A stretch of 64,000 nucleotides of DNA from Blasia pusilla. Lineage: Eukaryota. Below, one piece after another: positions 4,481 to 62,600 of the stretch; position 1 is the first letter of the stretch; every line of letters starts with the position of its first letter. Both the position numbers and the translations under genes were made by a program. The DNA is taken from positions 7,254,001-7,318,000 of the forward strand of contig CM114271.1 of NCBI GenBank assembly GCA_050084515.1. Direction: 5' to 3'. Below the pieces are notes generated by a model, which saw nothing but the letters and a program-made list of their open reading frames with translations, made no database searches and was not told where the DNA came from.

Positions 4481-4487
4481 CTTAGCT

Positions 4488-6253: not shown

Positions 6254-6359
6254 TATCGTGCGAATCCACATCGTCATACAACATACATCGCTGACATACC
6301 ATACCACATACATACATAACATAGACGAGAGTATCCAAAAACGCAAGTGTACCACAACT
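6254..6359 (-). repeat. E2 short repeat Y (terminal copy)
   Basis: Near-identical to 6729-6835. Confidence 0.9.
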
Positions 6360-6726
6360 GAAATCCGTGAAAGACCTACTGTCATAAAACACGTTTACAA
6401 TCACATACAATCGAGCCAAACCCACTCCACGATGGGAGAATCTAGGTCGAAGCTTGCGGGAAACACCATAGCCAAGAGCTCTACTCACTACCAAGGCTAA
6501 CTCCCAACGCATAACAGGCTCAACTCAAAGAATCGATCGTTCTTTGAGGGCAAGCCACCTTATATCCTCCAACCTAAGAGCGGGCCCTACGGGAAAGTCA
6601 CCCCAAGTGAGTAACCCCAACCCTATGTATGGAACCGCATCTCTACCAAGCCACTACGGTCCTACATAAGGAATGGCCTCTACTAAAGACACCATACTCT
6701 ACGACATAATCCGTATGGTCATGACG
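6360..6726 (-). repeat. E2 long repeat X (3' copy)
   Basis: Near-identical to 15626-15992. Confidence 0.9.
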
Positions 6727-6728
6727 CT

Positions 6729-6835
6729 TGTCGTGCGAATCCACATCGTCATACAACATACATCGCCGACATACCATACGCACATACATACATAACATAG
6801 ACGAGAGTATCCACAAACGCAAGTGTACCACAACT
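6729..6835 (-). repeat. E2 short repeat Y (internal copy, next to PPT-like tract)
   Basis: TGTCGTGCGAATCCACATCG...GTACCACAACT followed by CGCCCCTA (minus strand TAGGGGCG). Confidence 0.9.
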
Positions 6836-7008
6836 CGCCCCTAATCTGGCGGTTAGGTCCTCTAACTCCCAGGTAGCCCTATACATCTACTACATGCTAT
6901 ACACCTTCTTGGGTGCCCGAATCGAAGGCCGGGTGCTAGGTTGCCCCATCGTTAGTCGCACATCCGTAATCCATATCATGCAAAGATCAAGTCATCTACC
7001 TCTCCTAA

Positions 7009-7144
7009 GTACATCGAGGACAAACCCACCTTCCAGAGGGAACAACATCCAAACGTGGAGTCAAACACATCATGTGCCAACCCCTAGAACACCGATCACA
7101 CACCAACATACGGCTGCGTTACGTTGAGACCCACACAACATGCA
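7009..7144 (-). pseudogene. PHD finger at C-terminus of E2 pol
   Basis: RCMLCGS...MLVCDRCSRGWHMMCLTPRLDVVPSGRWVCPRC (one frameshift). Confidence 0.85.
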
Positions 7145-7159
7145 CCTCAAGCTAGCACG

Positions 7160-8360
7160 TATCATGGCTAAGCTTGGGTCAACAAGACCATCCACATTTG
7201 GAAGATGACATGGCGCACAATTACGCACATGGTCCTTCCAAACAACTCCATCACGACCCTCCAACATGAGAACTCCGAAGCTAACACCTCACGCACTCGT
7301 AAAATAGTGCGGCTGCCGTCACATCCAACGTTGTCGGGCAACCGCTGCAAATAGACATAGTCCCCACATGGAACCTACGAATCGATGGTCGATAACCTCC
7401 ACCCGAATGGTTGCATACCGCAACGTATCCTTGTGTTGAGCAATGGCAAGATTCTCAAAGGTGTTGGCATAACTCTCTCAAAGAGCTCCGCCGAGAACAC
7501 ACCTCATCCACATCTCGGGTCATCAAGGTTCACCACCTCACTAGACTCCCGACAAATTGCCGGCAAGTCCGGATCTCGGCCGTATAACAGAAAATAAGGT
7601 GAGAAGGAAGCCAAGGATGCTTGGCGATCGAACCTATAACCCATGGCTAACCATGGCAATCGAATATCCAGTCTCCAAGATGCCTTTTGTAGGCCATACT
7701 TGCGCAATGCCCTCTTCACCGCCTCGAACCACATGCTCAGCCAAACCATCCGCCCGGATGATCTCGAGACGTGGTCCGATGATCAATCAACGCCTTGTCA
7801 CACAAGACTGAAACTCACCCAAACTCAGACCCTGGGGTCGGTCAAGACTTCAGCTGGTGCACCAAAATGACTAAGCACTCTATCCGTAAACGCATACGCC
7901 GTTCCTCACTTGCCTTGTCCGGTAATGCCACCAACTCAATCCACTTGGAGAAGTGCTCCACCATCACCAACACATATCGATGATGTCGTACAGTCAACGG
8001 TAACGGTCCCGCAAAGTCCACACTCCAACGGTAACCCAACCCCATAATAGGCAAGGGGTGTAATTGTGGTGTAGGGGCATGAAATGATGCCCTCACCCGG
8101 TCACAAACCATATAACGTGACACCGACTGCTGCACCTGAGTATGCATGCCACGCCACCAATACTGGCCAAGGAGTAAGCTATACGTACGCTTTACCCCAA
8201 AATGTCCCAACTCCTCATGGGCATGTCGCACAATGCGCTCTCTCTGAGCCAAATGTGGCACTACTCGTACTCTACCATCCTCCCATACGCGGAGAATATG
8301 TGTTCCCTCCAATCGATACCTCTTAGCACGTTGAAGAACACGGTCTTGCTCCTTGGCACT
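7160..8360 (-). pseudogene. E2 DDE integrase (frameshifted)
   Basis: HAHEELGHFG...VCDRV zinc-binding domain; WSVDFAGP, VEHFSKWIELVALP, EVLTD rve core. Confidence 0.9.
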
Positions 8361-8362
8361 CA

Positions 8363-10099
8363 CTATGCCTGGCACCCTACTGGTCCGTAGGAACTCCAAC
8401 ACCAACGCATCATCATGAATATCACGCTGATCCGTACCACCATCTCCAACCTTAGGATCTCAAGGTCGCCATCTACCCTCCGACTAGAGTAAGATATCAT
8501 GTGGTCCTCCATACTAGAGTCCACCCCTAACCAACATAAAAAGGCGGATGCATGCCAACATGGCACCATCTCCTCATCAACCTCGCCATGCCATCTAGCC
8601 CAAGTTCTATCCTCTTGGCTAGTACATGGGTTCCTACTCAACCCATCAGCATCAAGGTTGGCAACTCCAGGTCTATGTACCACCTGGAAGTCATACTCCT
8701 GTAAGATAAGAGCCCACCGTGCAAGCTTCCCTGTAAGCTTGTCCGACTCCATCAACCACTTGAGCGGCTGGTGATCAGTAACAAGGGTAAACTGTGTGCC
8801 AAACAAGTAACACCTAAAGTGTGCCACAGCCCACACTAGTGCCAAGCACTCTCCCTCATATGAACTATAGCGCGACTCCGCTGCATTATTCGAACGACTT
8901 GCATAGGCCACCACAAATTCCATGTGCTCATCATCATGTTGTGTCAATACCGCTCCAAGTCCCAACCTACTCCAATCAATGTGTAACTGAAATGGGCGCC
9001 CTCTGATAGGTCTCCTCAAGATAGGCGCCGCCACCAACAGGGCCTTAAGCTCCACAAAAGCTCTCTCGTGATCATCTCTCCAGTGCCACTCTTGATCTGA
9101 TTTCAGCAATTGGTTCAAAGGCTTTGCCATAGCACTAAATCCCTTCACATACCTCCGATAGTAGTTCTCCAATCCCATGAATGCTCGAACTCTACTCACA
9201 TCTATCGGACGCGGAATAAGTGCAATAGCCTCCATCTTTGCTTGCTGAACTCCCAAACCATCTGGATAGATCACATGACCCAAGTACTCAACATCCTTAT
9301 GGAAGAACTTACACTTTCCTGGATGCAAACGTAGACCATGAGCTTTCAACCACTCAAACACCATCTGCAAATGTATCTGATGCTCCTCCACCGTGTTACT
9401 GAACACCAAGATATCATCAATGTAACACCGAACAAAATCCAACCCTGCTAGGATCCTGTCCATCACTCTTTGAAACTCGGTAGGTGCATTTTTCAACCCA
9501 AAGGGTAAGAATTTCCACTGGTACAAACAATCCTTGCCATGAGAGTTGACACCCCAAAATGCTGTCTTGGCCTTGTCACTCTCCCGAATCGGCAATTAAT
9601 GGTATCTTGCCTGAAGATCCAAAGTACTGAAAATCTTTGCCTGTCCCACCATATCAAAGATCTCCTCAGGTGTAGGCATGGCATACCTATCGGCCTTGGT
9701 TTGCCAATTGATAGGACGGTAATCTCCACACATCCGCGTATCCGTGTAGTTGCCATGCATATCCTTTTTAGCAGGCATGACAGTGGCTGATGCATACTCT
9801 CCATGCGACAACTCCACTAATCCAGCCTCCGAAAGGTCCAACGTCCTACTCTGAATCAAGTCCCTCTCCATATCACTATATCGGTAGGGACGACGGAAGA
9901 TTGGCATATCACTAGCCAAATCAATCCGTATACCGGGTCCAACCAGAGAACCCAACTCCTTCATGCTAAAGGCAAAACAACTCCTATAAGCACGTAGGAA
10001 CTGTGTGAAGCGTCGTTTCTCACCTCCCGTAAGCTTGGGCCCAAGTAATGGCTCCCAAGTCTCCTCCACTGGCACACTAGAGGGAGAGGATGATGCCAT
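8363..10099 (-). pseudogene. E2 reverse transcriptase + RNase H (one in-frame stop at 9596)
   Basis: RMCGDYRPIN, KTAFW, LPFGLKNAP, YIDD, KCKFF..VEYLGH; RNase H FQLHIDWS..GLGAVL, TDHQPLKWL. Confidence 0.95.
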
Positions 10100-10349
10100 T
10101 GGCTGCTACGCAACCCCCTCACAAGATGGTACACCCTTAGCTACACCATCATCTGAGCAAATAACTCCTCCACCAGCATGAGCAACCAACTCCACATGCC
10201 CAGCCATTACATCCCATCTACTCCAAGGATGCAAAATACTACTCTCCTTGCCCCCATCCGATGCCTCTACCGTCCCGGTAGCCAACGAGCTCATTACAAG
10301 GGGTGGAAGACCCACAGACATAGTCCGAAGTCGACGCTGCTCGGCCATA

Positions 10350-11310
10350 CCAAGACTCAAAATCCAAGTCAAACAATTCAGGTCCATGGCCTGACCCAAC
10401 ACATGACGTGGTGAAGCCTCAGAAATAGAAGCAACCGCTGTCACACCAGTAGCAAATCCCATCGCATGCTCTCTCTCATCAGCGTTAGGCTCCACCAACT
10501 GTCGCACATGAGAATCCCATACAAGCCCCTGACCACCTTCCCTGTAGGCATGTGACGAGGGAAAACTCACAAATGTGGGTAGTGCCATCCTAGGTTGGCC
10601 CACACGGTTCACCACTGCCATGGGTGACCGATCAATAACCCTCACCACTTGGGAAAGTCGCCCAGTATCCAAGATACTATCCACTGTAAGGCGAGGATCC
10701 CGCTGCACTGCATCATATGCTCGACGTAGAACCTCCCTAGGCAACAAGTTTATCCACCACAAGCATGGACGATGTGCACGCGAGCCAACTCGCGCTGCAT
10801 CCAACAACACCGCTGGTCCAATCCAAGAGCGCACCTCATGAACACTCGCCATCATCCGGGTCCGAGTGTCACCCAACAATGGAACATTCTCCAGAATGTA
10901 AGCTAGAGCACGTGCTTGATGAACCTGAAGATGTCATAACACCCGTAACATCTCCCAAAACAATCGAGACCTAGGGTCATGTAATCCCTCACCACGACCA
11001 GCACGTGTATGACCCTGACATGGCCATCCAGCAATCACCAAATCCACAGGACCAATTCTCTCAAGGTCCTACGCCCCCAACAATGCAATGTGTGATGGTA
11101 AAGCACGCTGGTACCCACGAATAGCTGATGGCGGCAACAACTCACGATATCTCCGCATCAAGTGACCAATATGTCGGGATGAGACTCTCTGGGCCGTCTC
11201 ATCTCGCTCCACATACACGTATCTCTGCACAGGAATACCGGCCTGCAACACTGCAGCCAAACCAGTGCTAATCCCACCAAAGAGATCTAACACACAAATG
11301 CCCTCCGCGG
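10350..11310 (-). pseudogene. E2 C5-cytosine DNA methyltransferase domain, DNMT3-like
   Basis: Motifs in order: VLDLFGGISTG (I), YVERD (II), VDLVIAGWPCQG (IV), YILENV (VI), AHRPCLWWINL (VIII), ERE.AMGF (IX), VLGQAMDL (X). Confidence 0.9.
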
Positions 11311-11779
11311 ATCTTGCCATACAATGGGTGTAGTATCCAAAGGGGATAACCAATGGGCAGAAGTAGGAGTCCGCCGTGGGGCCTCCTCTTCCTCGTGAGG
11401 TATAATGACCTCACACCAAGCCTCTGCACTAGGCGATCACCTCTGCCGTAGTGCACGCGTGAAGTCCAAAGTGGCACATCCAACGATGAGGATGCCCTTT
11501 GCTGCAAAAATAGGGACCTCCTCTTTCTCCTCATGCGCAGGAGAATCCATAGCGTAAAACATTACCCTCCAAAAGTCTCCTGGCCAAGTGACTACTCCAC
11601 TAAAACCAACCACAGATGCTAACACTTTGTTGGGGAAGACCTCTCTGGTCGAGCCCCGAAATAAATCTCACAGAACTTGGCTCATACGTCCATCCCGGAT
11701 GCCAACCAGGTCTATAAGACTGTCTCACCCGATTATCCCTCTCGAAAACCCATCGGGTACAATCGCTCCTCCAACTAGT

Positions 11780-12100
11780 ACATCATATATACGACTCACT
11801 GATGTGACTACATGCAGATACTCCCAACCGGGAGCTATCGTTGCATGATCTGGTCTCAACTGACAAAAACTTCTCCCGTGTCATGAATTGAGACCTATCA
11901 TTGGCTCCTCCAAGTGATGTTTGAATCTGGAATGGGCAAGGCTCAAGCTCGACCTCCGAATACCCAAACCAATACATGCCGCCTTTCCCAACATCAAGGT
12001 TGGGCACCGAGTCTAACAAGACTCTATCTGGTCTATACACATGTCTGTAGGACTCACCAATCAGAAGATCCCACTCCGGTTGTCCAACATACATACACCA
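11780..12100 (-). pseudogene. E2 retropepsin-like aspartic protease region
   Basis: RVLLDS motif, homologous to E1 RVLLDSGAQPLMLG. Confidence 0.6.
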
Positions 12101-12639
12101 GGTGTAAGCCTCTCACGATCAATGGCTGGCCGGGTGGTAATGCATCCATCTTCGCCGCGCCGCCGCAAAGTAGCACCGGGTACTCAATGCTACTCTTGAC
12201 ATAGAGGGTCGCTCCACCGCAACACCCTCATCCACCTCAACACGTAGCAAGAATAACACCCCACGTTCACACAACGTGGTCGCTAGCTGAAATACAGGAG
12301 CTAAGTCAACTCCTAAAGCCATCACCGTGGCGAAAACAATGGGGATCCCATTCATGAAGTTGCCATCCGCATCATTGCATTGATGTCGCATCCGTGTCTA
12401 CTACACGCGATGTAGATGCCTCGATCCCCACTGTCGGCTCAATAGGCTGCGTGAGGAACCATGGATGGAGTCCTAAGCACCTCAGACAACAAGAATGACT
12501 GGGAAGCCTAGCCTCGCCTCCGGCCTCACCCCTCTGTGGGTCCAACTCCACAAGAGCATCACGTGGCTCGACGCTCGAGTGGCTCCTCTCAGAATCGCGG
12601 TGATGCCTCAACTGTCTTTGCACTCGCCATATAAGAGAG

Positions 12640-14131
12640 ATCATCCCTCCATAAGAGGTGGAAGCCCCTGCTCCCGAACTGATCTATCTTTGGATACCCG
12701 ACCACAGAGCCAACCGCTCCAATCGCTCAATCTGGCAGACCATAGCCGACTGTCGAGTGGTAGGGGTAGCCACCGTAGGCTCTCCAACCACTCGTCCACC
12801 TCTACCACCCCTACCACCTCTACCACCTCGGCCTCTCAGAGCTACTCCACCACGGCCACGGCCTGATCTCAACTCTGGATGAAGATCAAAGCAACGCTCT
12901 CGAGGATGACCTAGTCTCCCGCAATGATCACACTGAGTTGGGGCTGACTGAGGCCCATCCTCGAAAGTCCGTCTCCCATCCTCTTGGGGACAAAACTTCC
13001 TAACATGATCACCTCCACATGTCCAACATGACTGTCCTTGCTGCGGGGCAACAAATGAAGGCAATGGTCTCTGCACAAATGTCCCTCTAGGACTTGACTG
13101 AGGTCGCGTGCACCCCCCACGACTCCCACTACTACTACCACCACCACTACTACGAGGCGTGAGGTGGGCGGTGAACACAGAAGTAGTAGTTGTATCCCCT
13201 ACTGAATGCGGATGTCACCACTCTCTCCTTCACCATGTTAAGCTCAATCTTCTCAGATAGAGCAAACACATGGGTCAATGTGGGTGAATCATCACTCATA
13301 AGAGTAGCATCACGTACCCTACGACGCAAATCTCTGTCTAAGATCCCATACCAAAACTAGATCGCTCGATCCTCGGTCACACCAGGTAACTGAAATCAAG
13401 CGTCGATACGCGTGTATGCCTCACTTAAGACTCTCACCGTCTTTCGCTCAAAGTCCTGAAGATTCCTCAACTTCTCCGTCTTCACTCCTTGATAGTTCTT
13501 CTTCAACCTCTTGAAGAACTCGCAACCGGGCTAAACGATGGTGGGGTACTAGTACCTCCACTAGTACCTCCACTAGTACCTCCACGGTACCCCCACTCCG
13601 GCTGTACTGCATTACCACTCGTCGTCGGGTTGGTGGCATAGTAGGAGCACTACTACCAATACCACCATGGGTGATAGACACATAGCCTGGAGACCAATAT
13701 TTTCTCCATGCCTCAATCTCAAGCAACATGGTCCTTCCTAAACTCATGGTAATCATCCATGGGTGGTCCTTCCAAGTCTTGAAACAACCCTTCCAAGCCA
13801 AGAAGGGTGTAAACAACGTGGCATTCCGCAACATCTGCATATCACACCACGTATCAAACTCCTGCATGAAGTCCTCCAACTCAATGGTACCCATGCACGA
13901 GTATCGTCGTGGGCCCTTCATGGCCCCATATCCACCGTCCATGTCCCAAATCAATGGAGTGCAACACTCGATAACAATGTAGAAGACTCGGTGTTTGGAA
14001 CACCTCGCCCTCCTCTTCATCAACCGTCGGAAGTGGAAAAGGTAGCCGATACCTAAATCCACTCCGTGTGAAACCACCACGTCCGCACCACGGTCCCCAA
14101 CCAAACCACCCGATGACTCTGTGATGACCAA
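12640..14131 (-). pseudogene. E2 gag-like region
   Basis: Two CCHC knuckles (CWTCGGDHVRKFC, CDHCGRLGHPRERC), RGG-rich segment; LEDFMQEFDTWC shared with E3. Confidence 0.75.
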
Positions 14132-15612
14132 CGCCGATGCCGCACCACCACCAAATTACCAAGTGACGTCGATGTCGCTATACTATTCTAGCTCTACTAG
14201 CTATGGGTGTAGGCAACCTAACTTGTCATCACCACAAGAAGTCTCCCATAATCTACTCGTCATCCCTCCAGCCTCACTACCGGTAGCACACAAGAGTAAC
14301 ACTACTCTGGAAATCAACGTCAACCCTAACAATGGGCGCGCAAGCAAGAAGCACGATGGAGGGGATCCAAACACAGGAAATCCAACGACAACCCTCCAAT
14401 CGCAAATGGAAATCAAGGTAACACAATCCACCAAACGTGGTGCCCTCGAATCCACAAAACCCACCACACAATTCTAACGCAATAGCTACTCCGCCGAATG
14501 GTCGATGACGTGCTAGTCGAATGCGCAAAGACCTGAAAATATCACTGCATGGAGAGGCTACACCGCATACTATGCGCTAGAGGTACATCAACCAAAAACC
14601 TGAGATGCATAAAGCGCCTAACACATCTCCGAACAAAGACCAAATGAGCTACAACAATCTCAGACATGGCATAGTTAAGAACTCGGCGATTAAGCGTCCT
14701 CCAGGCAGAATAGCCCAAAGATGGGTGACCAGTTATGCAAAACTCAAATCCCAAATCGTGCAAAAATTGCCTTACGCCCAAGCAAGCAAGCTTGCTTGCT
14801 TGCTTGCTCCTTGCTCCTTACTCCGCCTCTCATGCCCACTCGCCCCGAGCTACCACGAGTTGCCTCGAAGCCTCAAAACGCCAAGACATGCCCCGTTCGC
14901 CATGCTTCGCCATGGAGAGAGGTCCAACCAGGGCGCCCCCAACGGGATAGGAGTCTCCAAAAATGAACAAGTCACCAACCAACCAGCCCCTCTGATCCGC
15001 TGTCCACCATAGCCAGACCTTGAGCTAGTCCGTGAAATTTCGATCAGAAATTACTTCACAAATACGTGATCGAAATCAAATCTGTTTCAATCAGAATTCA
15101 ATTGACCACCATAGCTATCTCCCCACAAAAACTCAGCTACAACCGAGCTCTGTACTCCGAGCTAAAAATCAGAAAAACTTGCTGTCCATACACCTCTAGA
15201 ACCGCAATTCCGACAGCGCTTCCGCCAAGTTTCATGCACGCAGAAATCCGCAACGCTCCACGCACTCGAGCAAATAGCTTCACATGAGATCACAATACAA
15301 GTAGCAATAGGAACCTCTCACCCGATCTGGATGAACTTCAACAGAGCTTCCGCACTCCAAGCTCTCCACATCATAAAACTGTCGAACACGACCAGAATCT
15401 TCAATGCTTGATAACTTCCAACTCCCTTGACGAAATCCGGCGATCTAAAGCGCGTTGGAAAGCTCTCAGCAAGGCGCTTCTTTCCCAACCAACCGTGCAC
15501 CAGATTCACACCTCCAACATAGGCCACAAGCCACGAACATCCACGGCTGAGTACACAATCAGCCCTAACCCGATCCTACTGATCTACAATCGAAGCTACC
15601 ATCGATCTACTC

Positions 15613-15625
15613 CAGTTCTTTGAGT
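15613..15625 (-). promoter_or_regulatory. E2 primer-binding site, self-complementary type
   Basis: Minus strand ACTCAAAGAACTG abuts repeat X and is the exact complement of minus-strand 15799-15787 inside X. Confidence 0.75.
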
Positions 15626-15992
15626 GAAATCCGTGAAAGACCTACTGTCATAAAACACATTTACAATCACATACAATCGAGCCAAACCCACTCCACGATG
15701 GGAGAATCTAGGTCGAAGCTTGCGGAAAACACCATAGCCAAGAGCTCTACTCACTACCAAGGCTAACTCCCAACGCAACAGGCTTAACTCAAAGAACTGA
15801 CTGTTCTTTGAGGGCAAGCCACCTTATATCCTCCAACCTAAGAGCGGGCCCTACGGGAAAAGTCACCCCCAAGTGAGTAACCCCCAACCCTATATATGGA
15901 ACCGCATCTCTACCAAGCCACTACGGTCCTACATAAGGAATGGCCTCTACCAGCACACCATACTCTACGACATAATCCATATGGTCATGACA
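15626..15992 (-). repeat. E2 long repeat X (5' copy, carries promoter)
   Basis: Matches 6360-6726; TATAA on minus strand at 15828-15824. Confidence 0.9.
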
Positions 15993-47286: not shown

Positions 47287-48341
47287 CCTCCTTTTACTTC
47301 CCGATTGTGTGCTCTCTGCTTCCTCTTCCACAACCCCACAGTTCTCAAACCATAGATTGAGTGAATCAAACTTGCAAATCCTCTCTCCTTCTTTACCGCT
47401 TTCGATGAGGTGTTGAATAAATTGTCGATGAGGGATTTTCGGGCCAATTCTCGTTTTGTAGTCTTTGATACGGGATTTGATGAGTCAACTGAATCGACAA
47501 GAACTCAGCGGACTTTAATTAGTCACGTTCGAGCTGATGTTGTCTACTGGACAAGCGATAATGTATGCGCGCTATTTTCTTTAATTCATGATTTATACAT
47601 GTATGAACTTTTCGTTGAGAAAGACGATTCAGTTGGTTTCGGAGAAACTGACGATGGCATTTTCGTAAATGAGAATGGTTGAAAAAAAAAAGGTTTCTTA
47701 CATTTCATGCCTCTACTTTAACGGATTTACCGGTTTTGCTTTTCCTTTCTCGTCTTAAATGTTGTGGTCACCATATTTCTCGACAAACAATGACAAGATC
47801 GGACATAAGACATCTAACCGTGAAACGCTAAGAACTCGGGGCAAAGACTCGTGCGAAGTGGAGTGAAAAGACAAGACTACCGTGGCAGTCACCTTCACTT
47901 CCTACCCTAGCAGCGAGGAGGTAAGAGCTATGATGATCACAAGCAATGACATGAAGGTTTTTGCATGCTCAATAAAAGTGGAGTCATTCACATAGTTTGG
48001 ACACAGGTTTATGCCCCCATGAGACCCTACACCCTACACAAGTGGTACTTACTATTTTTACCTAGGCAGCAAGAAAATAATTTTTTTATTATGGATAGCA
48101 GGTAAAAAGATTGAATTTGTCTTATGCATGGTATTGGATGTACACTAGTTCTTTTAAACAGTAGTAAGATATTCACTCAAAGCATGGAATGTTTGGAGAT
48201 GCATGTCATGCGCATACACATCGTTAAACAACATAGATCGCTGATCACATCCACACCACACAATACCGATCTTCCCCACACACAAGTAGATACACACATG
48301 TTCAGAAATCAACTCATACATATACATAGAGATCACACAAC

Positions 48342-48821
48342 AAAAATAGAAAGTAATAAAAACGGCACACCCGGCCTAAAACTCCACTCCTCAATCTACA
48401 TCGACATATCGAGCCTCATCCACCCTGCGCTATCAAAGAATCCGGACGTTAGCACCCTAGTCCTATCTCACACACATAAAAGAGAGGTGCTCCAACGGCC
48501 CAACATGAGAAAGATGGCGTGGGAAAGCCATCTTCCTCCCTTATATAGGGTTGGGTAGAGCCAAAAGGCTCTTCCCCTAAAAATAGCTATTCTCTTGGTA
48601 ACCTGCGCGCACAGGTTACCAAGGGTGGGTGACCTACTGAACAAGTCATCCGGCTATGAAAGACCTCAACAAGAAAGTTGTCAGAAATGATGTTCCTGAC
48701 ACAACAGACCTATCCTCAACCTCATCCGACACCGCGGGACAAAGTTACACTCAAGAAAGTCCGCTAGCTCCTATGCCCTATCCACTATAGATCTCGGCCT
48801 ATCGGTTACTCAGATGTGACA
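48342..48821 (-). repeat. E3 long repeat X (3' copy, 480 bp)
   Basis: Collinear with 56863-57342. Confidence 0.9.
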
Positions 48822-48823
48822 GC

Positions 48824-48962
48824 TGTCGTGCGCATATATATCGCTTTACAACATACATCGTTGGTCACATCCACACCACACAACACTGATCTTTCCCCAC
48901 AGACGGGTAGATTCACACATGTATAGAAATCAACTCATACATATACATGGATATCACACAAC
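48824..48962 (-). repeat. E3 short repeat Y (internal copy)
   Basis: Matches 48204-48341; followed by CGCCCCCTAG. Confidence 0.9.
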
Positions 48963-49042
48963 CGCCCCCTAGCTGGCAGTTGGATCCCCCTAACTCCAGA
49001 TAGAAAATATCACATCTCCCTTATATGACCTATTACCCTATA

Positions 49043-49180
49043 CACATCTCGGACACGTCCATCATCTCGTGGGAACTATATCAAGAAGGGGGGTCAGACA
49101 TGACATATGCCACCCCCGAGAACAACCGTCACATACCAACATGGTGGCTGCATCCGTCGCAGATCCGTACAACATACACC
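49043..49180 (-). pseudogene. E3 PHD finger
   Basis: RCMLYGS...MLVCDGCSRGWHMSCLTPLL...WTCPRC. Confidence 0.8.
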
Positions 49181-49239
49181 TCAAGCTTGTAGTTACCACT
49201 GCCAAGCTCGGATCCACTGTCCCGTCCATGTTCGGAACA

Positions 49240-52100
49240 TGACATGGTGCACAATTGCGCACATGATCCTTCCAAAGTATACCATCCCATCCCTCCAACA
49301 TGAGGACTCGGGTCTGTAATACCTCACGCACACGTAGGATCGTGTGCCCCGCATCTAGCATTGTGGGTGCCGCCTGCTCTAAATACACGTAATCTCCATG
49401 ATGAAACCTCCTAATCGTTGGACGATAACTTCCTCCACGAATGGTCGCGTACCTCAATATATCTCTATGTTTAGCAATAGCTAAGTTCTCAAAGGCCATA
49501 GGCATAACTCTACAAAAAATCCCCGCCCTCTAAGAACACGCTTGTACCCACATAGCTAGATCATCAAGATCTAACACCTCCACCATGTCACGTCGAATAG
49601 CGGCAGGTAAATCTGGCTCTCTCCCAAAGAGCAAAAAGTACGGTGAAAATGACACTAAGGATGCGTACCGACTAAAGCGATAATCCATAGCCAACCATGG
49701 CAACTGTAGGTCCCACACCCTCAATTGTCCCCGCTGCAAGCCATACTTGCACAATCCTCTCTTCATCGTCTGTACTACTCTCTCCGCCAACCCATCCGCC
49801 TCAAGATGATCTCTGGACGTGATGTGATCTATCAGCGCCTGATCACACAAGGCCTGAAACTCTCCTCTGAACTCGGTACCTTGGTGAGTCAACACCTCCG
49901 TCGGTGCACCAAAGTGACTAAGCACACAATCTAGAAACGCATAAGTTGTTCCCTCGCTCGCCTTGTCCGGTAGTGCCACCAACTCTATCCACTTTGGAGA
50001 AATGCTCCACCATGACCAACACGTATCTGTGATGACACCCCGTCAATGGCAAAGGTTCCGCAAAGTCTAAACTCCACCGATAACCTTAACCCATAATCGA
50101 AAAAGGATGTGACTACAGAGTGGAAGCATTGAAGGATGCTCACACTCTGTCGCATACCATACATTTGGCCACAAACTGCTGTACCCCAATATGAATGCCG
50201 CGCCACCAGTACTGAACCTGGAGTAAGTTGTAAGTACGCTTTACTCCAAAATGCCCCAACTCCTCATAGGCATGTCGCACTACAGGTGCTCGCTGGGAAT
50301 GATGAGGTACCACTCGTATCCTACCATCTCCCCATACCCGCAAAATATGAGTCCCCTCCCACATGAACCTCTTGGTTCTGTGTAGGATCCGATCCTGCTC
50401 CCTAGCACTTATTATGCTCGCTATGACGCCAGTGCGCAAGAACTCCACAACCTCCATGTCGTCATGGATATCACGACCACCTGTCGCCTCCTCATTGACC
50501 TCCGGATCCAAAGACTCATCATCCGATCCCACCACTGGAGTCATCACCTGTGGCTGACCTACCATAGTCAACCAACAAAGATAGGCAGATGCATGCCAAT
50601 CGGGCACCATCTCCTCATCACTCTCTCCGTGCCATCGAGCTCTTGTGTTGTCTCTCTGACTCGGATATGGGTTACGACTCAACTCATCTGCATCCTAGTT
50701 CATCCGATCTGGCCTGTGAACCATCTCAAAATCATACTCTTGTAGTAATAGAGCCTACATGGCAAGCTTTCCCGTAAGCTTTTCGGACTCCATTAACCAC
50801 CTCAACGGTTGATGATCAATAATAAGTGTGAAAGGGTTGCCAAATAAATAGCACCTGAAATGTGCCATAGCCCACACTACAACCAAGCACTCCCCCTCGT
50901 AGGAATTATACTTTGCCTTTGCAATGTTGTTCGATCGGCTCGCGTAAGCCACAACGAACTCCCTCTCCTCTTCATCCCTCTGAGTAAGCACTGCTCCTAG
51001 ACCCAACATGCTCCAATCCGTATGTAAGAAGAATCGGAGATCCCTAACTGATCTCTCTAAAATGGGTGAGAACATCAACATGTCCTTGAGCTCTTGAAAT
51101 GCTCGCTCCTGATCATCTCCCCATAACCAAACCTGATCAAGTCTCATCAACAAGGTCAAAGACTACGCGATCACACTAAAACCCTTGACATACCGTCAAT
51201 AGAAGTTCGCCAGTCCAAGAAATGCTCGGACTCGACTCACATCTGAAGCGGGTGAAATCTGCGGATAGCCTCCACCTTCGTCTACTGAACACCTAACCCA
51301 ATCAGGTATATGGTGTGTCCCAAGTACTCAATTTGCTCCTGAAAGAATCTGCACTTGCTTGAATGTAACTTCAATCCATGTAACTGCAATTTCTGAAACA
51401 CCTCATTCAAGTGTCGCTCATGCTCCTCAATCGTGGAACTGAAGATAAGAATATCATCTATGTAACATTGTATAAAATCCAAGCTAGCCAGAATCCTATC
51501 CATCACTCTCTGAAACTCCGCACGCGCGTTCTTCAACCCAAATGGTAAGAATCGCCACTGATACAAGCAATCTCTCCCAAACCAATCTATCCCCCAAAAT
51601 GTTGTCTTCTCCCTGTCCTCCAACCTGATAGGAAGCTGATTATAGCCAACACGCAGATCTAAAGTACTGAAGATGTTTACATGGCCTACCACATCAAAGA
51701 TCTCCCCAGGAGTAGGCATGGCGTACCGATCTGACCTCATTTGTCAATTGATAGGATGGTAATCTCCACACAACCGCCTATCCGTCCAATTGCCATACAT
51801 ATCCTTCTTCGCCGACATGACTATGGCAGATGCATACTCCCCATATGATAACTCCACAAGTTCTGCCTCCAACAAGTCCTAACTCCTGCTCTGAATCAAG
51901 GCTTTCTCCATATCATAATACTTGTAGGATCGACGAAAGATCAACCTATCACTAGCCAACTCAATCCGTATCTCGGGACCCTTCACCGTACCCAAATCTC
52001 TCATACTGAAGGCAAAACAACTGACATGCCCTCTTAGAAACATGTGAACTCCCCGTCGCTCTCCTCCTATCAACTTGAGATATATCACAGGCTCCCAAGT
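49240..52100 (-). pseudogene. E3 RT-RNase H-integrase (stops/frameshifts)
   Basis: YIDD, LPFGLKN, TDWSMLGLGAVL, GHFGVKRTY, EVLTHQGTEF, DGLAERVVQTMK. Confidence 0.9.
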
Positions 52101-52419
52101 CTCCATTGTGCCCTCACTCGGAGAGGATGCAACCTCCCGCTTTGGTTGCTATGTAGCAACCCTAGCCACCTCCGCAACAGCCACTCCACTCTAGCCTCCT
52201 ACACCATGCTCCACATCCAAAAAATGAACATGTGCTGCTCTTGCTGCCTTCACACTCTCCCCTCGAACGACATCCCATAAAGTCCATGGGTGCCTATCTC
52301 TCCTGTCCCACCCCCATCCAATACCTGTACAGACCCTATAGGCAATGCTCCAACTCGGGAACGTGACGGCATGGATGACACTCGCATCCGTCTCTGCTCA
52401 GCCATACCTACGCTGACTA

Positions 52420-53350
52420 TCCATGTGAGACAGTTGAGGTCCATCGCTTGCCCCAACACCTCTCTCCGGGATGCCTCAGTCATACCTGGCACACCCGTAG
52501 TACCCGTAGCGAACCCCATGGCACGCTCACGCTCATCCGCTATATGCTCCTCCAATGCTCGGATCACCTCATCCCAAATCATATGTGGCCCTCCTTGACG
52601 AGAGGCATGGGATGTTGGGAATCTCACCAACATAGGTAAAGTTGCCCTCAACTCCCCCACCCTATTGGCCATCACCAACGGTGGTCTATCATCTCGTGTC
52701 ACCACCTGAGATTGACGCCCTGAACCCAAAATAGCATCCACTGTGAGATGTGGTGCTCTCTGGACTCCATCGTATGCTCGACTCAATACCTTTGATGGTA
52801 TCAGGTTCGTCCACCACAGTCGTGGACGATGGGCGTGTGATCCAACTCTCTTTGCATCTAAGAACACAATAGGTCCCAACCAAGACCTCACCTGATGCAC
52901 ACTAGTTATCACACGTGCACGAGTATCTCCCAACAATGGCACGTTCTCCAAAATGTACGCCGAAGAACATGTCTGACTCTCCTGCAAGTGTCGTACTAGC
53001 ATCTCCCAAAATATCCCTGACCTCAGATCCTGCAATCCAAACCCTCGTCCAGCTAATGAATGACCTTGACATGGCCATCCCGGAATCACCAAATGAATGG
53101 TGCCAACTCTATCTAGATCATGCGTCCCCACCAAAGAGATGTCGGCGGGTAGTGTATGCCGAAATCCCTGTACTGTAAATACCGGCAACAACTCAGGATA
53201 CCTCTGGACCAATCTTGCCACATAACGTAATGATACTCGCCATGCGGTCTCATCTTTCTCCACATAAAGATATTAATGCACCCGTATGCCCGCCTACAAT
53301 ACTGCAGCCAATCCGGTGCTAATCCCTCCGAAGAGATCTAACACCCGAAC
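52420..53350 (-). pseudogene. E3 C5-cytosine DNA methyltransferase domain, DNMT3-like (largely one 337-aa ORF)
   Basis: LDLFGGISTG upstream; LVIPGWPCQGH, YILENVP, AHRPRLWWTNL, ERERAMGF, RREVLGQAMDL. Confidence 0.9.
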
Positions 53351-53699
53351 ACCCTCCTCTCAACACTATCACACAACACTGTGGTATCCAGTGGGGTCAA
53401 CGTCTCCACTCTAGGAGCCCGATCGCCACCTGACTCTCGCTGCTCCGAGATAAAGGCATGACTCCATGCCTGCCTCACGAGATTGTCGGCACTCTTGTGT
53501 AGCTCTTGAGTCGTATCCCACAATGGTGAAGAGGTCTCGCCAACATGGGAAGAGACACCCGCCATGGCCTGTCTCTCGGTGGGACTATCCGCTACTAGGA
53601 CATCCTCCGTATGTGCATTCCCCTCCAACCACTCTCTTGGCCAACTAAAACTACCTGTGAAAGCTACCAACGTGGTCACAGACTCGTCTCGTGCTCAAC

Positions 53700-56250
53700 C
53701 ACCTCGTCCCATAAACTGCACGGGTAAGTGACTCATCCGCCCGTCACCCGACCGCCACCCTGGCCGATAAGCAACGGTCTCCTCCCACAAGTCAAGGATG
53801 AATCTTAGGGGATATAACAATATACTCCCCACCAACTCATCGTATGACTCAGCTAGTGTCATAATCGCACGTTTGCGCACCATAGCACTATGCGTCGCAT
53901 GCTCTGGCTAGACTCTGACAACTATCTCATGTCGAGTCATATACTGCGTGGGTGACATGCCCCCAATCGAGGTCTGTATGTAGAAGGGACAAGTCTCAAT
54001 GTCGGCCTTCCATAACCCCAACGCTAAACAAGTCGCCTTCCCTAACATCAAGAGTTGCACTCCCGAATCAAGTGGGACGCGCTCTAGGTGGTATACTATC
54101 CCCGTTCGACTAACCAAGCAAAATACTCCAGATCGATTATCCCATAACACTACACCAGATGTCACCACTGCTTGCTCTATGGCCGATCGAGCTGGCATAT
54201 CTACCAAGTTTGCGACCGCCGCATGTCATGAGTCTGTGGGGGACGTTCCGAGCACCTCCTTCGAGGGCCAGTCCACCACCTCTCAACTACCTCTGAACAA
54301 GAGGCAATCACCTCTCCACGCTCACACAACGTGGCGGCCAGCCGGAACACCTCAGCTGGTCCAACTCCCAACGTCGCCAACTCTATGGCAGAACATAGCG
54401 AAGTCTGGCTTACTCTGGTGGCCACCTCCAACACTATGGTCGACACTGACTCCACTCGAGCCGGCATAGGAGTTGTCACTCCAACTTCTTGTGACGTCGA
54501 CGCACCTGCCTAACCTGTTGGCACCGCTGATCAACGAGGCACCATCGATGGTGTGTGTAGTGCCTCCCACAATGTGAATGACTTTGGAACCGTGGCCTGC
54601 CGCCCATCAGTCCCCTCTGGTAGGTCAATCTCAACTCCACCTCTCGATGGCTCAGTACCTCTCGCAACACCCCGAGTCACCACTACATCAGCCTCAACGT
54701 GAGTTGCACTACACATAAGCCCATACTAGTGAGATCCTCACCCCGGTGAGGGTAAGAGGTAGAAGTTGGAGCCACACTAGTTGCTCACGGATCCGTGCCT
54801 GCCCTGAGTTACATCATCGTGATGGCAACAATCCTCTGCTCCAACTGATCGATGCATGAGAGAAGTGTCGGCTCTGGTGCTCCTGCTCCATCTCCTCTGG
54901 CTGGTGGTGGTCCTCTACCACCACATCCAGGAACAACTCCCCGACTTCCTCCAGGATGACCACCCCCAGGCCCTCGGCCTACCTCTGGACGTGCCTCTCG
55001 ATGAAGGTCAAAACATCTATCCATAGTGTGACCATATCTGTGGCAATAGTCACACTGGTGGGGCCATCCTCTATCTGAGCAATCAGAGGCGCTCGTGGTC
55101 CTCTCCCATGTTGTGTGCAGTCTCTCTGCCTATGGGCTCCTCCACACATCCAACAAGACAACATCGGTCCCTGTTGGGCAACATATGTAGATACGGGTTG
55201 TTGCCTCATAGGCTCACAGTACCCGCCCTGCTCTCTGGGCACACTGGCCCACTCCCGTGGTACTGGTGCTCGGTGTGGCACGTGTAGGGTCACCGTCACT
55301 TGTGGACCCGTCAACTCTCGAGAAAATCCAGCAGTCACTACCTCCTCATCAATCATGTTGAGCTGAATATGCTCAGACAACTCGAAGATCACCTCCAATG
55401 TGGGCCTTGCTGTGTGAATCAGTACCGCATCTCGGACTCTCCTCCATAGTTCTCGGTCCAAAACCACGAACCAATTGACTGACTTCGCCTCAATCACTCC
55501 ATACGTAGCAATGATCAGCCTCCTCATGCGCGTAAATGCCTCTCTCTGACTCTCACGTGATCGTTGCTGAAAATCATATAGACTCTTCAGCTTGTCGGTG
55601 CGTATGCCCTAGTAGCTCTTCCCCAACTATGGGAAGAACTCCACTATAGGACTGAAGATGGGTGGCCCTCTACCACCAAAGGTCTCTGCCACATCGCCTG
55701 TCTCACTACCCTCCTTTCCATCTAGTCTCTGGGCTGATGGTGTGGGTCTCTCTCCCCTCATGATCCCATCATATGCCTCGCAACCACTAGTGGACACATA
55801 CTCTGGAGCCCAATACATCCTCCAAGCATCAATCTTTAGTGAAAAGAGCGATCAAAACTCCATGTAGTTATCCATCGGAGGACCCTCCAAGTGCTGCAAC
55901 AATCCCTTCAATGCCATGAAAGGGTTGAACCGTGTCAGGGTCCGTATCTCTTGGAAGTTGCACCACGTGTCGAACTCCTGGATAAAATCATATAAGTCCA
56001 TGGTGCCCTCTACACCCGAGAAACAACACATGCCCCAATGGCCCATGTCGTACATCTCTTGCCAAGTTACATTGCCTCCGTCTGCGATCACGTCACCAGA
56101 CCTGGTGTCTAGTGATGACAATTTAGCCAAGGATAGATGTCGAGGTAGCTCCTCACTGGTAATCCTCAGTATCTCACATCCACTCCATGTCACACCACTA
56201 CTACTGCTCGCACTACCCCGTTCTTCCAAACCCTGGAAGAACACCGTGAT
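53700..56250 (-). pseudogene. E3 gag and protease regions (decayed)
   Basis: LYDFIQEFDTWC, CWMCGGAHRQRDC knuckle, VPLDSGVQ. Confidence 0.7.
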
Positions 56251-56848
56251 GACAACCCGGTCTCACCCGCTCAAGTACTCAAACTCACCAAGAGTCTCCC
56301 ACACTCCTCAGTAGCTCACCCACGCTAATGGCAATCCCGTGACGACATACTCCGCCTCACGCACACTCAACACTTGGGCTCACCATGAGCCTCCCAACTA
56401 ACTCACCTAAAGCACAGATACTCTCAAGTCATACACGTGACCCCTACTCGGCAACCGCCGTATATCCACATACATGCCACAGGGAGGGGCCTAAATGCAT
56501 GGCCCTTGGCCCTATAAGGCCTCCCCAGCCCTAAATGCGCGGGGGAGAAGAGTCGCGACGGCTCGGCTTCCCGGCCTCTGCCCTAACCCTAACCCTAGAC
56601 CTAGCCCTAATCTCTAGCCGCCTTTACTTAACAGCCCCACAGTGGCTGCAAGGCCAAGCTCTCCTTTCCCTCTATCTCGTCACTCATGGTCGGCAGCACA
56701 CTCGTGAACTCCCGCCCTTTCATGCCTTGCTACACTCAGGTGCTCTCTCTCAAAAATCTGCACATGTGAAATCTACAAAACAACGAACAACGCTTCTGCC
56801 CACGGCCTTCCAAACACTACAAACAACGAATTCCCACCAACCCCTTGA

Positions 56849-56862
56849 CATCTTTCTCATGT
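56849..56862 (-). promoter_or_regulatory. E3 primer-binding site, self-complementary type
   Basis: Minus strand ACATGAGAAAGATG abuts X and is the exact complement of minus-strand 57037-57024. Confidence 0.75.
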
Positions 56863-57342
56863 AAAAATAAAGAGTAGTAAAAATGACACACCCAGCCTAA
56901 AACTCCACTCCTCAATCTACATCGACATATCGAGCCTCATCCACCCTGCGCTATCAAAGAATCCGGATGCTAGCACCCTAGTCCTATCTCACACACATAC
57001 AAGAGAGGTGCTCCAACGGCCCAACATGAGAAAGATGGCTTTGGAAAGGCATCTCCCTCCCTTATATAGGGTTGGGAAGAGCCAAAAGGCTCTTCCCCTA
57101 AAGATAGCTATCCTCATGGTAACCTGCGCACACAGGTTATCAAAGGCGAGTGACCTGCTCAAGAAGTCACCTAACTGTGAAAGACCTCAACAAGAAAGTT
57201 TTTAGAAACAACATTCCTGACACAACGGACATATCCTCAACCTCATCCAACACCGCGGGACAAAGTTACGCTCAAGAAAGTCCGTTGGCTCCTATGCCCT
57301 ATCCACGATAGATCTCGGCCTATCGGCTACTCAAATATGACA
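56863..57342 (-). repeat. E3 long repeat X (5' copy, carries promoter)
   Basis: Matches 48342-48821; TATATAA on minus strand at 57068-57062. Confidence 0.9.
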
Positions 57343-57819
57343 TGCAATGCCCGTGTGTGCAACCCTTCTTGTGGCGATCATGATGTGCCTTAAGTCAAAA
57401 ATATGTGGGCACAAGTAGGAAGCTTTTGTTGGTCAGAATTTTCAAGTGTCGATATATGAAGCAATCAGCATGAAATGGGTATCTCTCATAATAATATAAA
57501 TTATATAGTTGCATAAGAAATCCCTGAGGGGTAGAGTACATCCGATAGCCCCTATTCAAAATGCTAACAAGGACTGGAAACCTAAACTCAACTCCCTACT
57601 CCTCAAGATTTAGAATTCAAAGTCTAACATGTTGTCTTGCTTGGCATGTTCAAGCTTAAGAAGTATGATATATTTTGAGACCCATCTTGAGATACTAGCT
57701 GTTCTTCTAGGAACTAGAAGGAGATTATATAAGGGTTGATAGATTAGCCAACCAAGGGAGTTACAACTTTAAGCAAGGCATTAATTTTCAAATTTGGTAT
57801 TTCGCTCGTATTATAATTT

Positions 57820-59653: not shown

Positions 59654-62600
59654 TGTCGTGCGCATACACATCACTACACAACATACATCGCTATCATCGA
59701 ACACACCCACGATCCCATGCTAACTCATGACATCCATACAGAGAGGCAAGAAGTACAAAATATCTCCAATAAAGTAAGATCCAATCTCTCTACACCATCT
59801 CACACCATAGCTCTTAAAGGTGTGCACTCTCTTAATGAAAGGCTTGGGTTACACTCACAAGGAAAGGGACCATAGCTCCGCCGCCTCATGCCAAGAGGTT
59901 CAACAAAGAGAGAATGAGCTCTCAAGCTCTCTCTCCTTGAGGTATACCCCCTTCCCTCTCCCAAGCCCTCTCAACGATAACCTATGCTCGCAGGTCACCT
60001 CCTTCGCTCTTGACCAGCTGTAGCGGGTCAAGGGCCACTTCCCAAAGTGTAAATTCAACTATCCCCAACATGGAAACTTACACAACATAGTAAGTTTCTC
60101 TATATGGCTCCAAATGAGCTGAAACGAAGGGGAAACCTGCTCTCTCAGGTTTCCTGGGGCCTGAACAAGTCATCCTCGACCTCCTGGGCCTGTCCTTCAC
60201 TACTCGTGCAGACACTCTCCTAGATCCCACCGATCTATCCTAACAGTCGTGAGAGCTGTCGTGCGCATACACATCGCTACACAACAAACATCGTTGTCAT
60301 CGAACACACACCCAAACACACACGATCCCATGCTAACTCATGGCATCCATACACAGAGGCAAGAAGTACCAAATTATCTCCAATCGCCCCCCTAGCTGGT
60401 GGTTAGGTCCTTGTAACTCCAGATAGCCATCTATCCTTACCTACCACGACATACACCTCTAGGACGCTAAGAGCAGAAAGGTCGGGATATTCATGTGACC
60501 CCATCATTAGTCGACTTCTTATCATCCATGTCACGGAAAAAGTCATAATCGAAACCTACCTAGCATCTCCTCTATGTCCATCAGGGGCACACCCATCATC
60601 CCCGAGGAACCCTAGTGAGAGGTGGCATCAGACATGCCATATGCCAACCTCTCGAACATCCATCACAGACTAGCATCGTGGCCACACCACGAGCAGAACC
60701 ACACAACATACAACGCAAGCCTGCAGGAACTACTGTTGAGCTCGGATCTACTGTACCATCAATGTTAGGAAGGTGACATGGCGCATAATTACGCACATGG
60801 TCCTACCATACCATACCATCGCATAACTCCAGCAAGAGAACACCGGATGGCAAAATGTCAGGTACTCTCAGAATAGTGCGCCCTGCAATCACATCCAACG
60901 TCGTCGGTGCCGTCTGCTGCAAGTAGACATAATCTCCTTGATGAAACCTCGGGATAGTAGGTCGATAACCACCACCCCGAATAGTCGCATACCTCAACGT
61001 CTCTCGATGTTGCGCAATCGCCAAGTTCTCAAACGCCATGGGCATCACTCTCCAAAACAACGCAACCCCCTAAGAACATGCTCGCATCTATACATTTGGG
61101 TCATCAAGGTCCAGCACCTCACCAGCATCTCGACGAATGGCCGTAGGTAAATTTGGCTCTCGGCCATAAAGTAGCAAGTACGATGAAAAAGATGCAAAGG
61201 ATGCCTGCCTGCTGAATCTATATCCCATTGCCAACCATGGCAATTGGAGGTCCCAATTTCCTAGGTGATCTCTCTGCAAGCCATACTTGCGTAAACCCCT
61301 CTTCACCGTCTGCACAACTCTCTCCGCTAATCCATCCGCCTCCGGATGATCTCGCGAAGTCGTGCGGTGGTTGATCAGCGCCTGATCACACAAGGCCTCG
61401 AACTCACCGTGAAACTCGATACCTTAGTCTGTCAACGTCTCTGCCGGTGCACCATAATGACTAAGCACTCTGTCAAGGAAGGAATAAGCTACTCCCTCAC
61501 TCGCTTTGTCAGGAAATGCAACCAACTCAATCCACTTCGAGAAGTGCTCGACCATCACCAACACATAGAACGACTGTGACGCTCCGTAAAAGGAAAAGGT
61601 CCTGCAAAATCCAAACTCCATCTATACCATAAGCCCATAATCGATAATGGATGCAACTGTGGAGTCGAAGCAGTGAATGATGCTCACACCCGATCACACA
61701 CCATGCACCTGGCAACAAACTGTTGAACGTCAATTTGCATGCCTCGTCACCAATACTGAATCTAGAGCAAGCAGTACGTTCGCTTCAACCCAAAGTGACC
61801 CAACTCCTCATGGGCATGTTGCATTAGTCGTGCTCTCTGCAAAGGATGCGGCACTATGCGTACTCTACCATCCTCCCAAACCCTTAAGACATGTGTCCCC
61901 TCCCAACGGAACCGTCTCGCCCGCTGTAGGATCCGATCCCACAATCCAGCACCCACGGTGCTTGCAACCTCACTCGCAACGCTGCCAATACGAAGGTACT
62001 CCAAGACTACTCCATCATCATGAATATCTCGGCCACCTGTCGTCTCCTCACCGGCCTTGGGATACAAGGACTCTCCACTAGACTTCGCCATCAAAGTCTC
62101 CACAGTCTGGCTCTCTATAGCCAACATGCCTAAATAGGCTGAAACGTGCCATCCTCGCACTGACTCCTCATCACTCTCTCCATGCCATCGAGCTCTAGTC
62201 GCATCTCACTGACTCTGGCATGGGTTACGACTCAACCCATCTGCATCCTGGTTGAGCATCCCAAGTCTACGTACCACCTAAAAATCATACTCTTGCAACA
62301 CCAAAGCCCATCTCGCAAGCTTCCTTGTAAGCTTGTCGGACTACATCAACCACTTCAGTGGTTGATAATCAGTGGTGATGGTAAAGGGGTTGCCGAATAA
62401 GTAACACCTAAAATGCACGATAGCCCACACTGTAGCCAAGCACTCGCCCTCATACGAGTTGTACTTCACCTCTACAGCGTTGTTCGAGCGGCTAGCGTAA
62501 GCCACCATGAACTTTCTACCCTCATCATCATGTTGGGTGAGCACTGCTCCAAGCCCCAACATGCTCCAATCTGTGAGCAACTGGAAAGGACGCCCCCTGA

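Follow-up and report, generated by a model that had tools for sequence, protein, structure and literature searches.

What primes reverse transcription in a retroelement whose 5' repeat is followed directly by bases complementary to a segment of the repeat itself? The question is raised by a 64-kb stretch of DNA (the window, meaning the whole stretch that was analysed), which holds four degenerate retroelements, E1 to E4, all on the minus strand. We consider it likely, from the arrangement and pairing of the sites, that the 13–14 nt directly after the 5' repeat X are the minus-strand primer-binding site (PBS) and that the element primes reverse transcription with its own RNA.

Elements with split repeats

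Judged by their sequence, these are Ty3/gypsy elements on the minus strand whose Pol includes a cytosine methyltransferase (DNMT) and whose DIRS-like split repeats are arranged X...Y-X-Y. The elements E3 and E2 have the following parts.

48204..57342, minus strand: E3, whole integrated element, reading X1 - predicted PBS - internal - polypurine-type tract (PPT) - Y1 - X2 - Y2
56863..57342, minus strand: E3 X1, 5' repeat of 480 nt with 90.4% identity to X2, starting TGTCA
48963..48972, minus strand: E3 polypurine-type tract CTAGGGGGCG, immediately 5' of Y1
48824..48962, minus strand: E3 Y1, whose end forms with a GC spacer and the start of X2 the palindrome GACAGCTGTC
48342..48821, minus strand: E3 X2
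48204..48341, minus strand: E3 Y2, 85.6% identical to Y1, its ...GACA being the 3' terminus of the element
6254..15992, minus strand: E2, whole element, nested inside E1, with target duplication GAAG (15993-15996 and 6250-6253)

In sense order, each complete element runs through X1, a site of 13/14 nt, the internal region, ...AGGGGG(N)CG, Y1, 2 nt, X2 and Y2. The integrated unit starts with TGTCA and ends with (C/T)GACA, and 4-bp target duplications lie on both sides of E3 (TGCA, at 57343-57346 and 48200-48203) and of E2. Identity in E2 is 94.9% between X1 and X2 and 97.1% between Y1 and Y2. Colinearity of E1 and E4 on both sides of the insertion is our reason for taking E2 to be nested in E1. 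Near 21300 E1 is truncated at its 5' end, and E4 continues beyond the window, its 5' end and PBS lying outside; the Y1-X2-Y2 ending is present in all four elements (48204-48962, 6254-6835, 4483-5246 and 59653-60384). The preliminary description had treated X as the repeat. The pairing does start at the X border, as it held, but X is not a complete LTR: Y had been missed, and the unit is X1...Y1-X2-Y2.

Pfam searches of 24 ORF fragments matched DNA_methylase, RVT_1, RT_RNaseH, Integrase_H2C2, rve and PHD; the same 24 fragments gave no match to a tyrosine recombinase (Phage_integrase) or to a chromodomain (Chromo). The PHD finger, at 49065-49529, occupies the C-terminus of the integrase region, the chromodomain's place in chromoviruses. 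The closest named reverse transcriptase proteins are from liverworts (Calypogeia, Riccia, Marchantia) and Closterium. Base composition sets the elements, at about 50% GC and strongly strand-skewed, beside AT-rich non-element DNA at 2001-4000 (GC 0.245) and 21300-22100. Y is modestly G+T-rich (62-71%, against 58-60% for whole elements) and might, at a guess, act as a poly(A) downstream element.

Pairing at the repeat border

The complementarity involves a segment inside X, which we call p, and the bases that follow X1.

57024..57037, minus strand: E3 p (primer segment), CATCTTTCTCATGT, the 14 nt with which the RNA is predicted to begin
56849..56862, minus strand: E3 predicted primer-binding site, its first base directly after X1, 14/14 against p
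57060..57066, minus strand: E3 TATAAGG box, its first T 29 nt before p
15787..15799, minus strand: E2 p (primer segment), CAGTTCTTTGAGT, beginning 29 nt past the T of TATAAGG (15822-15828)
15613..15625, minus strand: E2 predicted primer-binding site, 13/13 against p
59904..59917, minus strand: E4 predicted primer segment, TCATTCTCTCTTTG, in X2, 29 nt after TATACC and with an arm upstream
4765..4778, minus strand: E1 p (primer segment) as predicted in X2; this element lacks its 5' end

The inverted complementarity reported in the preliminary description was confirmed in full. On the minus strand of E3, 56862..56849 (ACATGAGAAAGATG) and 57037..57024 are exact reverse complements of each other, as are, in E2, the 13 nt at 15625..15613 (ACTCAAAGAACTG) and those at 15799..15787. 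The geometry also proved to be as described: TATAA lies at 57066-57062 in E3 and at 15828-15824 in E2, the gap to the paired segment is exactly 24 nt in both, and the distance of 174–175 nt, counted from the start of p to the start of the PBS, comes to 175 nt for E3 and 174 nt for E2. The two primer sequences had been called unrelated; they do differ, but not wholly, both being pyrimidine-rich with a TCTTT core in common. An identical copy of E3 p is present in X2 at 48503-48516, and the X2 copy of E2 p has 2 positions unlike the pairing sequence.

That the matches are a chance or relic palindrome without function is a reading to which we give practically no weight. The pyrimidine-rich composition common to both speaks for it, and nothing further does. 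A 13-mer with a perfect inverted copy at most 500 nt upstream occurs at 16 of the 126,974 positions on both strands of the window, a background rate of 1.3e-4 per position; besides E2 and E3, these positions come down to three loci, a simple repeat and two hairpins with a spacing of 15-43 nt, and no other pair in the window has the spacing of E2 and E3. The same geometry recurs in two families of the window and in one metagenome family, described below. The pairing of p with the PBS is, moreover, the longest complementarity among the non-coding parts of E2 and of E3.

Predicted folds of the 187-189-nt leader have this pairing as the dominant closing stem. Predicted pair probabilities are 0.94-1.0 across all 13 pairs in E2; in E3 the outer 10 pairs reach 0.83-1.0 and the inner 4 are low (0.03-0.09), the MFE fold placing the inner p bases elsewhere (-63.4 kcal/mol, against -60.4 kcal/mol with all 14 pairs forced). 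Telomere-like repeats of the TTAGGG type also occur in the leaders, at 56581-56592 and 56605-56610 in E3 and at 15563-15568 in E2, about 250 nt and 50 nt beyond the PBS, respectively.

Priming near the border by a host tRNA, by a fragment of one or by another small RNA, for example at TGG stretches, is a very improbable alternative. TGG is absent from the first 9 nt after X, and Rfam gave no match in 56400-57400. For a comparison with host tRNAs, ARAGORN found no tRNA gene in the window or in 33 loci. The TGG-containing stretches TGGTGGGAATTCG in E3 and TGGTAGCTTCGAT in E2, both starting about 24 nt after X, would suit such a primer, but those 24 nt would then fall inside the repeat, and X1 and X2 diverge at the border itself. 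By eye, we take it that neither stretch runs on into a T-arm-like complement.

Where the repeat ends bears directly on the choice of primer. The conserved tract ...CCAGCTAGGGGGGCG precedes Y1, and Y1 begins directly after ...GGGG(N)CG/TG, in all 17 of the listed junctions between PPT and Y1 (13 loci and the 4 window elements), so that the tract fixes the start of Y. With the Y start fixed, X ends one base before the pairing in E3, in E2 and in the metagenome family. Extension from a primer annealed at this place is expected to set the border of the repeat at the first paired base.

The metagenome family comes from a scan in which two sequences of the DNMT region were the query; it yielded 80 loci, with 261 pattern matches of which 113 were confirmed, and X and Y of these loci were annotated by BLAST. 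Of 29 scanned 5' regions 22 had a BLAST match, all to one X family (21 of them over X); its R-U5 and the R-U5 of E2 share about 76% identity. The consensus of this family contains a TATAAAG box, p = AACATAGTTCTTTGAGT at 26 nt after the TATA box, and PBS = ACTCAAAGAACTATGTT; 17 contiguous Watson-Crick pairs between p and PBS are intact in three loci (L049, L050 and L061). Twenty rows covered X1 and the PBS, and setting aside 2 without a recognisable p and 5 duplicates left 13 distinct copies with both partners. Six of these 13 have at least 10 contiguous pairs from the end of X and seven have 0-7, a pattern that decay could produce but that does not prove it. Among the 80 loci there was no E3-like or E4-like X, so that the gain is one further family, related to E2, and a scan of viral contigs found no relative. 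The PBS predicted for E1 and E4 had 26 matches in the window at up to 3 mismatches, none adjoining a 5' X, and its sole exact matches, at 4765 and 59904, were p itself in complement.

Covariation, to which the preliminary description had appealed, is seen between families and within one. Between families, the E3 and E2 sequences differ and both are fully paired; the metagenome family keeps its 17 pairs, and the distal end of the duplex is C:G in E2 as against T:A there. Within the E2 family, WGS reads over 15300-16100 have G>A at 15799 in 842 of 1927 (44%) and C>T at 15613 in 276 of 935 (30%), both among the variants listed. These positions are partners, 15799 being position 1 of p and 15613 its counterpart in the PBS, and the change is C:G to U:A, the two frequencies being unlinked.

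One metagenome copy (L055) has 15 extra nt at its X2-Y2 junction (L055:13225-13242), of which the first 10, ACTCAAAGAA, match those of the PBS. An insert of this kind would be expected if a copied primer had stayed at the U5 end. The Tf1 self-primer is reportedly not removed, a finding ascribed to Atwood-Moore in 2006.

The pairing could also be purely structural, either as a panhandle closing R-U5 or as a contact between the PBS region and the 3' copy of p that makes the RNA circular; it would then serve packaging, dimerisation or strand transfer, and the real primer would be something else. We think this unlikely. Covariation and a stable leader fold are equally expected of such a stem, and the identity of the 3' copy of p in E3 fits it as well. 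It leaves unexplained, however, why the border lies at the exact first paired base in three families and why a PBS-like remnant stands at the L055 junction, and no other primer site is seen, with neither a TGG in the 9 nt next to X nor an Rfam match to offer one. Self-priming of the Tf1 type is favoured because the pairing sets in with the first base beyond the repeat, the required place of the minus-strand primer, because p sits where the RNA 5' end is expected, and because pairing persists while the sequences change, both between families and in the E2 family. Border position, geometry and maintained pairing together lead us to regard the proposal of the preliminary description, that these elements self-prime, as probably correct.

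Transcript start, upstream arm and proposed mechanism

Three stranded RNA runs bear on where transcription begins; nearly all reads had the first mate on the plus strand and were taken as sense RNA on the assumption of a dUTP-type library. Reads across the start of X carried the end of Y1 in 108, 133 and 89 cases and other flanks in 6, 0 and 9, and the DNA consensus at this flank agrees only at 0.65. The leader after X1 is transcribed, with an RNA depth of 10-45. Because the reads at the X start carry the Y1 end while the leader is transcribed, most transcripts start inside X1, and the data indicate that the U3 part of X1 is mostly untranscribed. We infer that the RNA 5' end is p, about 30 nt after TATAAGG. 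No pile-up of molecule ends at 15799 was present among those listed, a comparison of low power in which the 3' copy dominates the depth. RNA molecules appeared to begin at 15831 in two of the three runs (29 and 25 molecules), a pile-up that we rejected as an RNA end and that is probably due to read clipping at the variable stretch 15813-15825. Most copies of the family are unlike this E2 copy in that stretch.

A further feature of X is an arm upstream of p.

57050..57059, minus strand: E3 arm, PBS-like, between the TATA box and p, with a predicted hairpin with p
15803-15812 in E2, 59918-59939 in E4 and L050:1832-1860: arms elsewhere

The predicted hairpin of arm and p reaches -14.3 kcal/mol (z -3.4) in X1 of E3 and -20.2 kcal/mol (z -6.8) in its X2 copy. 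It has 10 bp in X1 of E2 (z -4.9), z is -2.5 in E4 and -3.6 in L050, and the hairpin is weak in E1 (z -1.2); in X2 of E2 z is -0.85 for the stretch as cut here. The hairpin occurs in three families, and the sequence of the arm co-varies with p. We read the arm as an argument for a start between arm and p. With an RNA start after the arm, sequestration would be confined to the 3' copy of p, and the arm may mask this copy of the primer. The loop between arm and primer is variable: in E2 it is AGTCAG in X1 (15798-15802) and GATCGA in X2 (6530-6536), four closely spaced differences that are far above the 5% overall divergence, and it varies in the metagenome family too (ATA, with TAT in L055).

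The self-priming reading can be set out as a sequence of steps. Transcription would begin about 30 nt after TATAAGG, with p as the RNA 5' end; p would fold back over about 175 nt onto the PBS, the RNase H of the element's reverse transcriptase would cut at the end of the duplex, and the freed 3'-OH would be extended, copying R-U5. Because this extension copies R-U5, the X repeat would end exactly where the pairing begins. The plus strand would copy the primer in each cycle and so renew the PBS from p, and both sites would change together. The arm would be absent from the RNA 5' end and present in the 3' copy, where it would lock p in a hairpin, so that only the 5'-terminal copy could prime.

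Out-of-register ends and comparison with known systems

The same features show a departure from the canonical Ty3/gypsy arrangement: PPT and predicted PBS delimit Y-X, whereas the TG...CA ends and the target duplications delimit X...Y. The end of Y and the start of X abut in an internal palindrome, ACA-NN-TGT (GACA-GC-TGTC in E3). Since the PPT lies before Y and not before X, and since the palindrome joins the Y end to the X start, the borders of reverse transcription and the integrated ends are out of register. No RNA read among those listed (down to 5 reads) runs from X2 into Y2; the DNA run has 507 such reads. Y1/Y2 identity is similar to X1/X2 identity in five elements (E2, E3, L044, L050 and L079), and 4-bp target duplications flank four more complete copies (L044, L050, L055 and L079). 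The X2-Y2 junctions are precise in most copies, the extra nucleotides numbering 19 in L044 and, as noted, 15 in L055; the insert in L044 (L044:10837-10858) is partly like the U5 end.

We infer that Y2 is re-made from Y1 in each cycle and that the X2-Y2 junction represents joined cDNA termini. A more tentative proposal, which we hold to be possible without favouring it, is that in these elements with a DDE integrase the reverse-transcribed repeat (Y-X) and the integration ends (X...Y) are circularly permuted, the X2-Y2 junction being the U5 end joined to the U3 start anew in each cycle. The junction could arise through a circle-type junction, or by end joining after the integrase cuts the palindrome of the left repeat. 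We know of no description of such an integration route for LTR retrotransposons; if the proposal is true, the route would account for the way in which a gypsy element comes to have DIRS-like split repeats. BLAST annotation found Y upstream of the 5' end in 0 of 18 cases, so the mirror form X-Y-X...Y is absent from these 18 5' ends. About ten metagenome copies end at Y1 and are without X2-Y2 (L021, L023, L026, L028, L039, L041/L042, L047, L067 and L071); of two that were checked for a target duplication, L028 has one (TACA, 4 bp) and L042 has none. Recombination between Y repeats, a second product of integration or assembly collapse may account for these copies.

The elements can be compared with several known systems. 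The reports on self-priming in Tf1, Tf2 and Tj1 are said to be those of Levin in 1995 and 1996, Lin and Levin in 1997 and Atwood-Moore in 2006. To our knowledge, experimental proof of self-priming is confined to elements of fission yeast, and there are predictions for a few clades in fungi, vertebrates and plants. The Tf1 duplex has 11 bp, and that of the present elements has 13-17 bp. In the portions of PMC4600332 consulted, Tf1 and Tf2 of S. pombe and Tj1 of S. japonicus are self-primed Ty3/gypsy elements that lack a tRNA PBS, with self-priming demonstrated for Tf1 and inferred for Tj1 and for other fungal and vertebrate elements. As in these portions' account of Tf1 and Tj1, the predicted PBS directly follows the 5' repeat and is complementary to the predicted 5' end of the element's own mRNA. 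Unlike Tf1, the present elements have an extra PBS-like arm upstream of the predicted start site, a DNMT in Pol, and split repeats in place of two plain LTRs. They also differ from chromoviruses in having a PHD finger in the chromodomain position, and by the chromodomain they do not fall with the Tf1/sushi-Tcn1 elements, the Pfam result for the 24 ORF fragments being PHD with no Chromo match. We use 'Tf1-type' for a mechanistic class and not for a phylogenetic group.

Among plant LTR elements, self-priming has been predicted from sequence for the Tcn1 clade of mosses and club-mosses and for TAR, a copia group, as far as the main text of Neumann 2019 (PMC6317226) describes them, and in this respect the present elements are like them; that main text contains no mention of liverworts, Marchantia or Klebsormidium. 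The split direct repeats, A1...B1-A2-B2, are like those given for the tyrosine-recombinase retrotransposons DIRS, Ngaro and PAT in the sections seen of PMC7192593. Unlike DIRS and Ngaro, the elements studied here have a DDE integrase (Integrase_H2C2 and rve, with no Phage_integrase match), TG...CA ends and 4-bp target duplications. Models for DIRS, Ngaro and PAT elements are reportedly due to Goodwin and Poulter.

The counterpart in architecture is KnitGypsy-Dnmt3 of Klebsormidium nitens, which is described, in the parts of the paper available to us, as having gypsy domains and repeats 'the same as that of a DIRS retrotransposon' (de Mendoza 2018, PMC5890265). The present elements have the corresponding features, a Dnmt3-type methyltransferase inside Pol in the order PR-DNMT-RT-RH-IN and a DIRS-like A...B-A-B repeat structure. 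With liverworts and Closterium as the sources of the nearest named proteins, the host of the present elements is probably a species other than K. nitens. The words 'primer binding' are absent from the main text of PMC5890265, and none of the 12 top-ranked papers of a literature search joined Klebsormidium or KnitGypsy with self-priming or a PBS. The DIRS-like repeat structure has been noted in print and left unexplained; the predicted PBS and the PPT now give it borders of reverse transcription, and the mismatch between these borders and the integrated ends turns split repeats into a testable question on cDNA integration. The priming mechanism itself is known, and as far as our literature search reaches, it is its assignment to a methyltransferase-carrying gypsy lineage that is new. 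Self-priming would then appear, together with covariation, in methyltransferase-carrying gypsy elements of streptophytes.
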